Positions 10,916 to 11,003 of a DNA stretch of 12,245 nt are shown here, piece after piece (position 1 is the first letter of the stretch; the number at the start of each line of letters is the position of its first letter). The DNA lies in the IMG/VR virus record IMGVR_UViG_3300031697_000053; one strand, written 5' to 3'. The stretch is from a virus. The position numbers and the translations under genes were made by a program. The notes under the pieces are model-generated. The model did not search any database. It worked only from the letters and a program-made list of their open reading frames with translations, and had not been told where the DNA came from.

Positions 10916-11003
10916 AGGCAGGAGAGGGAGTCGAACCCCCGGAACCCTCCGAAGAGGCCTCTTGGTTATGAGCCAAGCGAGCTGGCCACTGCTCTACCCT
11001 GCA
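10916..11003 (-). tRNA. Type II (long variable arm) tRNA with CAT anticodon. It has a Leu/Ser/Tyr-type architecture but decodes AUG (or AUA if lysidinylated)
   Basis: Minus strand: TGCAGGG-TA-GAGC-AGTGGCCA-GCTC-G-CTTGG-CTCATAA-CCAAG-[AGG CCTC TTCG GAGG GTTCC]-GGGGG-TTCGACT-CCCTC-TCCTGCC-T. The D stem (GAGC/GCTC) and anticodon stem (CTTGG/CCAAG) are perfect. The 20-nt variable arm forms a 4-bp hairpin with a TTCG loop. Positions 1:72 are mismatched (U/C), as in initiator tRNAs. The discriminator is U. Confidence 0.6.

Follow-up and report, generated by a model that had tools for sequence, protein, structure and literature searches.

Textbook knowledge confines long variable arms to the tRNAs for leucine, serine, selenocysteine and, in bacteria, tyrosine, for which the arm acts as an element of identity or shape. 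The window analyzed here, a stretch of 12,245 nucleotides of viral DNA, carries in its tRNA array a gene that joins such an arm to a CAU anticodon, and the question raised by this locus is which amino acid this tRNA receives and which codons it serves. The original prediction had recognized in it the architecture of tRNA-Leu, tRNA-Ser, tRNA-Tyr, or tRNA-Sec and had proposed that a seryl- or leucyl-tRNA synthetase (SerRS or LeuRS) might charge it, with insertion of Ser or Leu at AUG or AUA codons, while listing an unusual initiator among the alternatives.

The gene, hereafter tRNA 8, is a real and intact phage tRNA gene with a complete cloverleaf. It spans 88 nt on the minus strand (10916-11003; tRNA positions 1 to 73, as delimited by ARAGORN and Rfam RF00005), with no encoded CCA at its 3′ end, where CAAAAA comes next. 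ARAGORN called tRNA-Met(CAU) at c[10915,11003] with a score of 117.7, the highest of the 14-tRNA array, and RF00005 matched 10916-11003(-) over all model positions from 1 to 71 of 71, scoring 45.3 bits (gathering score, 29; E=3.8e-7) and placing 18 inserted nt within the variable region. Both ARAGORN and RNAfold gave a four-arm cloverleaf with a 7-nt anticodon loop, U33, and the UUCGA motif of the T loop. In the acceptor stem, the 5′ strand UGCAGGG (10997-11003, minus strand, as for all the following elements) leaves U1 unpaired with C72 and forms G2-C71, C3-G70, A4:U69, and G5:C68, the 3′ strand UCCUGCC (positions 66-72) and discriminator U73 being located at 10916-10923 by ARAGORN and the sequence. 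The D arm, GAGC-AGUGGCCA-GCUC (10979-10994), contains A11:U24, a purine:pyrimidine pair that marks initiators, and the anticodon arm, CUUGG-CUCAUAA-CCAAG (10961-10977; CAU at 10968-10970), retains G30:C40 and G31:C39 with U:A at 29:41. The 20-nt variable region (10941-10960) reads AGG-CCUC-UUCG-GAGG-GUUCC, that is, A44, G45, and G46 followed by the arm and C48, and its hairpin CCUC-UUCG-GAGG (10946-10957) lies within the ~15-16 nt that occupy the U47 site of short-loop relatives. Bases 44-46 and 48, which serve tertiary contacts, are retained, as is the G15:C48 pair. The T arm, GGGGG-UUCGACU-CCCUC (10924-10940), includes one G50·U64 wobble, so that the stems, originally described as perfect, are so for the D and anticodon arms but not for the T arm.

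The other structural observations of the original prediction were borne out. ARAGORN, Rfam, and the sequence agree on a long variable arm combined with a CAU anticodon and the U1·C72 mismatch; the 4-bp hairpin with its UUCG loop and the CUCAUAA anticodon loop are read directly from the sequence, and ARAGORN returned tRNA-Met(CAU). Neither a fold with a short variable arm nor an intron accounts for the extra nucleotides, since the unconstrained minimum free energy structure from RNAfold (-33.3 kcal/mol) is the cloverleaf with the variable hairpin in place, and ARAGORN, even with introns permitted, called none and kept the long variable arm.

The array comprises 14 tRNAs, including three Phe, two Glu, and, as had been counted before, four CAU genes (8990-9063, 10351-10424, 10534-10609, and 10915-11003), and some of its members look defective. 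A tRNA-Ile(GAU) gene (11006-11078, minus strand) lies 2 nt upstream of tRNA 8 in the same-strand array, and tRNA 1 (8990-9063, minus strand) is a host-like canonical initiator with U1·U72, A73, three G:C pairs, and a 5-nt variable loop. Sharing of the array was sought through the endolysin-like gene within it, and none of the 25 loci recovered had the same array. The source population was located in metagenome contig Ga0075122_10008840, and a comparison of this contig with the window revealed 20 differences, of which six fall in tRNA genes, 14 elsewhere, and none in tRNA 8; these differences are too few for a test of constraint between tRNA genes and spacers.

We then compared tRNA 8 with other tRNAs carrying the same anticodon. 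Over its 5′ half, it shares 83-91% identity with phage tRNA-Met and tRNA-fMet genes, and the whole gene is co-linear with gt012 of Cellulophaga phage phi4:1 (NC_021788 88944-89017) and with the short-loop tRNA of L096, apart from a single clean 15-nt insertion. Outside position 47, the ordinary 74-nt initiator-type tRNA-Met genes of related phages can be aligned with tRNA 8 base for base. Computed without the insert, identity of the core reaches 79% with gt012, 72% with tRNA 1 (the canonical initiator of the window), and 67% with E. coli metY, versus 54-61% with elongator or Ile2-like CAU tRNAs. An exact search of viral contigs for the tRNA core returned no match. Like tRNA 8, gt012 belongs to a phage array and has the same D stem, two of the three G:C pairs, and a mismatched 1:72, but it has a normal AGGUC variable loop, A1·C72, and A73. 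The initiators of E. coli (metY/metZWV) share with tRNA 8 the CAU anticodon, the unpaired 1:72, G2-C71, C3-G70, G30:C40, and G31:C39, and the D stem GAGC/GCUC, which gives A11:U24, is identical in metY. They differ by C1·A72, A73, and G29:C41, where tRNA 8 has U1·C72, U73, and U29:A41, and the variable loop of bacterial initiator tRNA(fMet) is 5 nt long, whereas that of tRNA 8 is 20 nt with a hairpin. These sequence comparisons place tRNA 8 in the initiator tRNA(Met) lineage and not among the Leu, Ser, or Tyr tRNAs.

The identity elements of tRNA 8 were examined in the light of published identity rules. A 1:72 position without a Watson-Crick pair is a major determinant of the formyltransferase, G2 and C3, in the pairs G2-C71 and C3-G70, are minor determinants of this enzyme, G4-C69 is likewise a minor element, purine11:pyrimidine24 is a mark of initiators, the CAU anticodon suffices for MetRS, and A73 is a minor determinant of both MetRS and the formyltransferase (PMC9976931). 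tRNA 8 carries CAU, an unpaired 1:72, a purine11:pyrimidine24 pair, G2-C71, and C3-G70, with A-U rather than G-C at 4:69. It departs from the initiator pattern at two points, namely, the presence of only two of the three G:C pairs at 29-31:39-41 and U73 instead of A73, the latter being found in only ~5% of both the long-arm and the short-loop classes among the matches listed. Replacement of all three conserved G:C pairs abolishes initiation in E. coli (PMC6393288). Among the matches listed, 51 distinct short-loop phage CAU tRNAs have a 1:72 mismatch, and G2C3/G70C71 is present in 44 of them, purine11:pyrimidine24 in 38, and two of three G:C pairs in 37, three features common in this set that tRNA 8 combines.

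A structural pattern in which G30, G31, C39, C40, and GGTTCGA were fixed was next run over viral contigs, with confirmation by ARAGORN, to collect CAU tRNAs of phage arrays that have a variable region of at least 10 nt on an otherwise type I Met/initiator body. All of these features are found in tRNA 8. The matches listed include at least 118 ARAGORN-confirmed long-arm CAU tRNAs, distributed over 113 of 120 viral loci and representing ~6% of the pattern-matching CAU tRNAs listed; the class includes at least 89 distinct members. A 1:72 mismatch, which was not part of the search pattern, occurs in 66% of the long-arm CAU tRNAs versus 2.8% of 923 non-CAU tRNAs of the same loci among the matches listed. 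Besides many uncultured phages, members of the class were found in tRNA arrays of metagenome-assembled genomes (MAGs) and in the cultured Bacteroides phage crAss001, whose host is Bacteroides intestinalis. In crAss001, the long-arm gene gt023 (NC_049977 5721-5807) is annotated only as "tRNA-Met", and it is the lone initiator-type gene, the sole other CAU tRNA of this phage having a paired 1:72. Like tRNA 8, gt023 combines an initiator-type acceptor end and U29:A41, G30:C40, and G31:C39 with a hairpin arm in the variable region; it differs by the sequence of this arm (GCAG-UAAUA-CUGU), C1·A72, A73, and U11:A24. In gt023 and in other long-arm CAU tRNAs, from IMG/VR contigs, the arm is bordered by ~3 unpaired bases per side. 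Some members are plainly of the elongator type, for example, a GGGACGU family with G1:C72, and the arm families diverge strongly from one another, suggesting that the arm may have had several independent origins or may evolve fast. Literature searches under varied wording found no description of a class of long-arm CAU phage tRNAs. Thus, what had been taken as a singular oddity is one member of a recurrent and apparently undescribed class.

The extra arm was analyzed for structure and constraint. In tRNA 8, three unpaired bases precede the arm stem on its 5′ side and five follow on its 3′ side, whereas phage tRNA-Ser genes of comparable loci have one unpaired base on each side among the matches listed. 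Taken alone, the hairpin does not significantly exceed shuffled versions of its G+C-rich sequence in stability (-5.7 versus -3.5 kcal/mol, p=0.12), and the case for a real arm comes from homologues and from the class rather than from the stability of the lone hairpin. Across the class, 23 of 74 distinct arms are more stable than 95% of their shuffles among the matches listed. In the subfamily closest to tRNA 8 (the L125 group and L277), the flanks AGG...GGUUC-C are kept while the second pair of the stem changes from C-G to G-C. This subfamily is small, with six distinct sequences and one covarying pair, and the compensatory pair was read straight from the sequences; pair counting on MAFFT alignments was set aside because shorter arms fall out of structural register. 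In a family of 17-nt arms, one stem pair is A-U in 11 sequences, C-G in 2, U-A in 1, and unpaired in 0 among the matches listed, and the whole-structure covariation score is 0.543 versus 0.147, a value reached by 0 of 500 shuffles. Judged from such compensatory changes, the arm hairpins are under constraint. A dispersed repeat or mobile element was rejected as the source of the hairpin, which is present only once in the window.

Long-arm initiators were also sought in host bacteria and rejected for the lineages checked, all of which have normal initiators. In Flavobacteriaceae and Algoriphagus, the initiators linked to era all have the ordinary 74-nt form, and those of Urechidicola and Lutibacter are normal. 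An apparent arm in Flavicella (L217) is an ordinary assembly gap, a 10-N scaffold gap that is also in the NCBI record. Another, in an Algoriphagus MAG (L232), consists of a 14-nt palindrome; five independent assemblies from 98%-identical strains lack it, as do one 86% relative and two isolates.

Several readings of tRNA 8 can be weighed against these data. A recoding tRNA, on which SerRS or LeuRS would read the long arm and ignore the anticodon to place Ser or Leu at AUG or AUA, would account for the stemmed arm and for the presence of G2-C71 and G30-C40, which contribute to serine identity. With type II tRNAs, tRNA 8 indeed has in common a variable region of more than 10 nt and a stem-loop between the anticodon and T arms, but it differs from them in anticodon, discriminator, 1:72, type of D arm (A11:U24), descent, and number of unpaired arm bases (three plus five versus one plus one in tRNA-Ser), and its 4-bp arm stem compares with a median of 5 for tRNA-Ser among the matches listed. 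SerRS needs G73, with G1-C72 being "absolutely conserved," and E. coli LeuRS and TyrRS need A73 (PMC9976931); with U73 and U1·C72, tRNA 8 thus lacks what SerRS requires, and U73 likewise deprives it of the A73 required by LeuRS and TyrRS. Phage tRNA-Ser genes, among the matches listed, keep G73 in 28 of 36 cases and G1:C72 in 31 of 36. Moreover, CAU is a sufficient determinant for MetRS, and a tRNA decoding AUG as serine would compete at all internal Met codons. The type II architecture proposed at the outset therefore holds for the long stemmed arm only, and insertion of Ser or Leu at Met codons, to which descent, identity elements, and arm geometry are all contrary, is very unlikely, the least probable of the readings considered. 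Conversion into a tRNA-Ile2, with C34 modified to lysidine by TilS, charging by IleRS, and reading of AUA, is highly unlikely as well. CAU is also the tRNA-Ile2 anticodon (PMC9976931), AUA is likely to be common in an A+T-rich genome (32.7% G+C), and tRNA 8 sits immediately downstream of tRNA-Ile(GAU). Against this, its similarity is to the initiator lineage rather than to Ile2-like sequences, and the 1:72 mismatch and A11:U24 are foreign to Ile2. Furthermore, the pairs C4:G69 and C5:G68, reportedly described by Ikeuchi et al. in 2005 as determinants of E. coli TilS, are found in another CAU gene of the window, tRNA 4 (GGUCCUG...), whereas tRNA 8 has A4:U69 and G5:C68.

The two remaining alternatives accept the Met lineage and question the function. 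An elongator or dual-use tRNA-Met, which would receive methionine, read internal AUG codons after delivery by EF-Tu, and simply tolerate its arm, would fit the loss of one G:C pair, U73, and the elongator-type members of the class, and 1x72-mismatched tRNAs are able to enter elongation when formylation is slow (PMC6393288). The window's candidate for an elongator, tRNA 3, is itself odd, with G37 and a C31·A39 mismatch. However, the unpaired 1:72, G2-C71, C3-G70, and A11:U24 of tRNA 8 together make up the recognition set of the formyltransferase, these features co-occur in phage tRNAs, and the nearest relatives are initiator-type, which leaves the elongator role unlikely. A non-adaptor, either a duplicated gene in decay or an RNA that stays outside translation and serves as a decoy or sponge for some tRNA-binding factor of the host, could be envisioned from the redundancy of the array and its defective-looking members, the unusual U73, the host-like initiator already in the array, and the pseudogene annotation of the phi4:1 homologue of the other long-arm tRNA. 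Yet all stems of tRNA 8 are intact, its ARAGORN score is the best of the array, the tertiary-contact bases and G15:C48 are preserved, and homologous arms are kept in diverged relatives with compensatory change. That gt023 is the only initiator-type gene of crAss001 is a further argument for function within this class, and we regard a non-adaptor as distinctly unlikely.

The evidence favors the alternative of an unusual initiator, given the initiator marks and the descent from type I tRNA-Met. From its sequence features, tRNA 8 is probably an initiator-lineage phage tRNA(Met) with a hairpin arm at position 47 that is charged with methionine, formylated, and used for initiation. Position 47 of a 5-nt variable loop would have been replaced by ~15-16 nt folding into a short UUCG-capped hairpin, an insertion that leaves A44, G45, G46, and C48, the bases of tertiary contacts in type I variable loops, undisturbed. 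Host MetRS would charge the tRNA through its CAU anticodon, and host formyltransferase would be expected to formylate the product in view of the unpaired 1:72 and of G2-C71, C3-G70, and A11:U24. Entry into the P site as an initiator would be mediated by G30:C40 and G31:C39. Like the arms of Leu, Ser, and Tyr tRNAs, this arm is predicted to point outward from the L into the solvent, with the amino acid identity unaltered. U73, the missing G:C pair, and the defective-looking members of the array count against an initiator function.

A second initiator is not obviously needed, because the phage already encodes the host-like tRNA 1. Our best guess, held with low confidence, is that the arm alters recognition by a tRNA-binding host factor, such as a defense nuclease, a toxin, or a modification enzyme, making tRNA 8 a phage-specific version beside tRNA 1. 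A broader and rather doubtful proposal is that the added arm is an adaptive tag at position 47, borne by phage initiators and by some phage Asn, Cys, and Ile tRNAs. Such a tag might allow escape from a host factor that reads the compact face of the variable loop, be it a tRNA-cleaving or tRNA-modifying defense or the phage's own host-shutoff nuclease, or it might permit selection by a phage factor.

Precedents exist for phage tRNAs that counter host defenses, as the tRNA-Tyr of T5 counters PtuAB and its tRNA-Lys counters PARIS. Phage tRNAs have been proposed or shown to resist host tRNA-targeting defenses, with substitutions in the anticodon loop (PMC10264068), and initiator tRNA is a known cleavage target of VapC-type toxins. 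Like tRNA 8, defense-resisting tRNAs are structurally altered variants of host tRNAs carried in a phage array; they change the anticodon loop, whereas tRNA 8 gains an arm. We draw this parallel as a hypothesis only, since no nuclease or defense system is linked to tRNA 8.

These findings put a long arm on an initiator-type methionine tRNA, outside the textbook set of Leu, Ser, Tyr, and Sec. For annotation, heuristics combining anticodon and length could mislabel such genes as type II, pseudo, or "OTHER" tRNAs. The cultured crAss001 makes the effects of the arm on charging, formylation, binding to initiation factors and the ribosome, modification, and toxin sensitivity experimentally tractable. 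If the arm is neutral, it shows the structural latitude of MetRS, the formyltransferase, IF2, and the P site, which is relevant to the engineering of orthogonal initiator tRNAs. If it is adaptive, it would represent a new route by which phages privatize or protect a key component of translation, and, should the tag hypothesis be true, infecting phages would possess an initiator of their own as well as a means of influencing how translation starts.

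The target gene, tRNA 8 (10916-11003, minus strand), is one of 14 tRNA genes arrayed on the minus strand between positions 8990 and 12086 of the 12,245-nt window (32.7% G+C), each of which was called by both ARAGORN and Rfam RF00005. It obtained the highest ARAGORN score of the array (117.7) and matched the full RF00005 model at 45.3 bits (threshold 29) with 18 nt of the variable region inserted relative to the model. A direct reading of the sequence gives the 88-nt gene an acceptor stem UGCAGGG/UCCUGCC in which U1·C72 is unpaired, UA at positions 8-9, a D arm GAGC-AGUGGCCA-GCUC, an anticodon arm CUUGG-CUCAUAA-CCAAG, a 20-nt variable region AGG-CCUC-UUCG-GAGG-GUUCC, a T arm GGGGG-UUCGACU-CCCUC and discriminator U73, with CCA not encoded. 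This anatomy agrees with the original prediction except in the T stem, which had been described as perfect and contains one wobble pair (G50·U64). The unconstrained minimum-energy fold retained the cloverleaf and the variable hairpin rather than a short-arm structure, and ARAGORN still reported a long variable arm when introns were allowed; both of the refutations proposed with the original prediction thus fail. ARAGORN likewise counted four CAU tRNAs in the array, as had been predicted.

The array as a whole is redundant and uneven, with four CAU, three Phe(GAA) and two Glu(UUC) genes. Several members look defective, namely, tRNA 13 (11855-11926, minus strand; A1·A72 and G at position 33), tRNA 12 (11777-11849, minus strand; mismatches in stems) and tRNA 3 (10351-10424, minus strand; G37 and a C31·A39 mismatch). 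Another CAU gene, tRNA 4 (10534-10609, minus strand; starting GGUCCUG), looks like an Ile2/lysidine candidate.

Many phages have ordinary tRNA-Met and tRNA-fMet genes to which the 5' half of tRNA 8 (positions 1-46) is 83-91% identical, and no match in deposited phages extended through the arm. The gene is co-linear throughout with the 74-nt tRNA-Met gt012 of Cellulophaga phage phi4:1 and with a short-loop phage tRNA (L096), the sole difference being that their AGG-U-C loop becomes AGG-[C CUC UUCG GAG G GUUC]-C in tRNA 8. This single insertion within the loop places the arm at the U47 site and retains A44, G45, G46 and C48, the bases of type I variable loops that engage in tertiary contacts, with G15 able to pair with C48. 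Once its 15 extra bases were removed, the core of tRNA 8 was 79% identical to gt012, 72% to the canonical initiator of the same array (tRNA 1, 8990-9063, minus strand), 67% to E. coli metY and 54-61% to the two other CAU tRNAs of the window and phi4:1 gt017. The alignment and core identities together provide the decisive result, indicating that tRNA 8 is a Met/initiator-type tRNA that gained an arm, and they rule out a Leu, Ser or Tyr tRNA whose anticodon was later switched. tRNA 8 belongs to the diverged phage-type lineage, while tRNA 1 resembles the ordinary host initiators described below.

Formyltransferase uses an unpaired 1-72 position as its major determinant and A73, G2-C71, C3-G70 and G4-C69 as minor ones, with R11:Y24 in the same recognition set, and the CAU anticodon alone is sufficient for E. 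coli MetRS (PMC9976931). tRNA 8 carries U1·C72, G2-C71, C3-G70, A11:U24 and CAU, and departs from the formyltransferase set at A4-U69 and U73. Its anticodon stem holds two of the three conserved G:C pairs (U29:A41, G30:C40, G31:C39). Replacing all three pairs abolishes initiation and leaves formylation intact, and a 1x72-mismatched tRNA can leak into elongation only if formylation is not quick (PMC6393288). Of 51 distinct phage CAU tRNAs that combine a short loop with a 1:72 mismatch, G2C3/G70C71 is present in 44 and R11:Y24 in 38, and 37 have just two G:C pairs; the two-of-three state is normal for phage initiator-type CAU tRNAs, and tRNA 8 matches this signature in each element.

The original prediction had considered that tRNA 8, if charged by SerRS or LeuRS, would insert Ser or Leu at Met or Ile codons. 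E. coli LeuRS requires A73 and ignores the arm, TyrRS requires A73 and its own anticodon, and Ser identity resides in the arm and acceptor-stem elements, G1-C72 and G2-C71 being absolutely conserved in bacterial tRNA-Ser and G73 also serving as a determinant (PMC9976931). Genuine tRNA-Ser genes of the phage loci scanned below have G73 (28/36), G1:C72 (31/36) and an arm of median 5 bp with one unpaired base on either side. In long-arm CAU tRNAs the arm is flanked on both sides by a median of three unpaired bases, and in tRNA 8 by three and five. This flank geometry is what an arm inserted into a type I loop at position 47 produces, and it is unlike that of type II tRNAs. With U73 and an unpaired 1:72, tRNA 8 lacks the A73 required by LeuRS and TyrRS as well as the G73 and G1-C72 of tRNA-Ser; these features and the arm geometry make charging with Ser or Leu unlikely.

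Viral contigs were scanned for GGCTCATAACC and a downstream GGTTCGA, set so far apart that only a long variable region could lie between them, which returned at least 120 loci; the pattern fixes G30, G31, C39, C40 and GGTTCGA and leaves position 1:72 free, and structures were parsed by ARAGORN. In 113 of the 120 viral loci listed, ARAGORN confirmed CAU tRNAs whose variable region reaches 10 nt or more; these 113 loci together hold 118 such genes (89 distinct) with variable regions of 11-23 nt. Within the loci listed, 1:72 was mismatched in 78/118 (66%) of the long-arm CAU genes versus 26/923 (2.8%) of the non-CAU tRNAs, R11:Y24 occurred in 39% versus 8%, and 107/118 long-arm genes had A73. When the spacing was widened to short loops, the confirmed tRNAs among the viral matches listed were 104 with short and 7 with long regions, the latter making up about 6%. 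The pattern also gave 31 long-arm CAU tRNAs among 120 matches listed from 596 Gb of bacterial and archaeal genomes, where an estimated 280 or so matches would be expected by chance; 15 of the 31 lie in arrays (8-kb loci with 5-30 tRNAs).

The class includes a cultured representative, gt023 of Bacteroides phage crAss001 (87 nt), whose database label is simply "tRNA-Met." It shares G2C3/G70C71, U29:A41/G30:C40/G31:C39 and a hairpin arm with tRNA 8, but has its own C1·A72, A73 and GCAG-UAAUA-CUGU arm. The single other CAU tRNA of crAss001 is paired at 1:72, and the gt023 family was also matched by about 25 PhiCrAssBcn isolates. Among 50,697 deposited phage records, no close relative of the window was found, and a full-text search, with most subscription-journal papers outside it, yielded no description of phage Met/initiator tRNAs with long variable arms. 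Also well populated among viral contigs is a 92-nt CAU family (L031, L045, L050, L051, L087, L117, L119, L122, L123 and L144; GGGACGU...ACGUCCC-A) whose 20-nt variable region keeps the stem GAGG/CYUC and varies in the loop. Its fully paired G1:C72 makes this family elongator-type, and extra arms are thus not limited to initiator-type CAU tRNAs.

The subfamily to which tRNA 8 belongs is made up of L270 (contig Ga0075122_10008840), the L125 group (about eight contigs from several metagenomes) and L277. L270 represents the same phage population as the window (99.56% over 4.5 kb, tRNA 8 identical). All members retain the flanks AGG...GGUUC-C and a mismatched 1:72 (U·C, U·U or A·A), and their hairpins vary (CCUC/GAGG, CG/CG, CC/GG) such that the second stem pair alternates between C-G and G-C, a single covarying pair in a small sample. 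In an alignment of 14 sequences with 17-nt arms, 99.4% of cells were paired and covariation reached 0.543 versus 0.147 in shuffles (0/500 as high), with one arm-helix pair occurring as A-U (11), C-G (2) or U-A (1) and never unpaired. In the class as a whole, 74 distinct variable regions were compared with their own shuffles, and 23 of the regions folded better than 95% of theirs, about four being expected; the 11-nt regions are unstructured. The arm of tRNA 8 itself did not fold significantly better than its shuffles (p=0.12) despite its C(UUCG)G tetraloop hairpin. Arms in families related to tRNA 8 are under structural constraint.

Since a native cellular long-arm initiator would be strong functional evidence, host initiators were examined, and two apparent chromosomal cases were found beside era, in a Flavicella MAG (L217) and an Algoriphagus MAG (L232). 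The former (L217:3555-3641, equivalent to L394:507-593; Flavicella sp., JBELHA010000045.1) was rejected because its apparent arm is a scaffold gap of 10 Ns accompanied by a duplicated TCA; the gap stands in the variable loop of the initiator tRNA in the NCBI record and leads ARAGORN to report an 87-nt "long-arm" tRNA-Met. Ns in the variable region also occur in L224 and L237, and scaffold gaps are a source of false positives for long-arm tRNA surveys in MAGs. The latter (L232:2588-2672, minus strand; JAJTDZ010000036.1) is an era-linked, otherwise canonical initiator in which GGU of the variable loop is replaced by the 14-nt perfect palindrome TCCGCCGCGGCGGA. It was discarded as a native long-arm host initiator because the palindrome is missing from eight related loci (five independent assemblies with 98% identical Era, one 86% relative, A. 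sanaruensis and A. hitonicola), all with an ordinary 74-nt initiator; the palindrome may have been inserted at the level of the strain, may mark where an element integrated, or may be an artefact of assembly. Two further MAGs (L237:5424-5470, L169:2172-2206) have comparable (U)CCGCC-loop-GGCGG(A) hairpins, located in apparently disrupted copies of an initiator tRNA. The initiators of Urechidicola croceus and Lutibacter aestuarii are ordinary (C1·U72, A73, three G:C pairs, AGGUC loop), and in the lineages examined the long-arm form is thus a feature of phages and arrays. In both species, an integrase gene adjoins the era-linked initiator tRNA (L396:1-1415, CP017478, and L397:282-1403, respectively), which suggests that mobile elements or prophages integrate at this gene in Flavobacteriaceae.

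A second long-arm tRNA of the array (11999-12086, minus strand; also L001:6398-6486 and L270:1094-1181) is 88 nt long, with anticodon GUU (Asn), G73, U1-A72, C2-G71 and a GAGU-UAAU-ACUC arm. Its phi4:1 homologue (85.6% identical, labelled "tRNA-OTHER/pseudo") has the arm GAGA/UCUC, with A:U as the fourth pair versus U:A in the window, and an ordinary 75-nt tRNA-Asn(GUU) is present in the same phage, as seen in L270. Among the distinct long-arm GUU tRNAs of viral loci, 11/15 combine G1:C72 and G73 with a single unpaired base on the 5' side of the arm, and so have a Ser-like body. As bacterial Asn identity consists of the anticodon and G73, such tRNAs could be ambiguous between AsnRS and SerRS, and may be better recoding candidates than tRNA 8.

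Phage-like ORFs around the array encode a phosphoesterase (phrog_547), a LysM/CHAP endolysin and a nucleoside 2-deoxyribosyltransferase. A viral contig encoding a 67%-identical relative of the endolysin (L004, IMGVR_UViG_3300028299_000006) has its own tRNA array, in which a tRNA-Thr(UGU) of 84 nt (L004:11953-12036) is a further case of excess length in a tRNA with a type I anticodon. An 804-aa ORF (487-2901, minus strand) significantly matched the shoulder domain of major vault protein (PF11978, 2.9e-23), Vault_3 (8.3e-12) and SPFH/Band 7 (3.7e-8) and had no PHROG match; this domain combination is unusual on a phage-like contig. A 165-aa ORF (5256-5753, minus strand) showed a sub-threshold match to the fungal tRNA ligase cyclic phosphodiesterase domain (PF08302, 4.2e-4; 20.3 bits versus a cut-off of 23) about 1.7 kb from the metallophosphoesterase (2968-3579, minus strand; phrog_547, 3.8e-42). 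If the PF08302 match is real, the two might form an RNA end-healing/repair pair, which would suit a phage coping with tRNA damage.

Our analysis establishes the gene, fold, descent, initiator signature and class membership of tRNA 8. Judging from its identity elements, tRNA 8 would be charged by MetRS, then formylated and used in initiation. By analogy with type II tRNAs, the arm would point to solvent and leave amino-acid identity unaffected. That phage tRNAs are variants able to evade host tRNA-targeting nucleases is a general idea with support in the literature, and initiator tRNA is a known cleavage target of VapC toxins (PMC10264068); within the window, no link of tRNA 8 to a defence system was found. 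The arm could also be a neutral, tolerated expansion. Other type I isotypes in the same arrays carry long variable regions (Asn GUU 20/72, Cys GCA 8/44, Ile UAU 6/22; 66/755 over type I isotypes in the loci listed). Although less exotic than recoding would have been, the finding on tRNA 8, a phage-encoded initiator-type tRNA, is real and recurrent, and lends itself to testing in a cultured phage-host pair.
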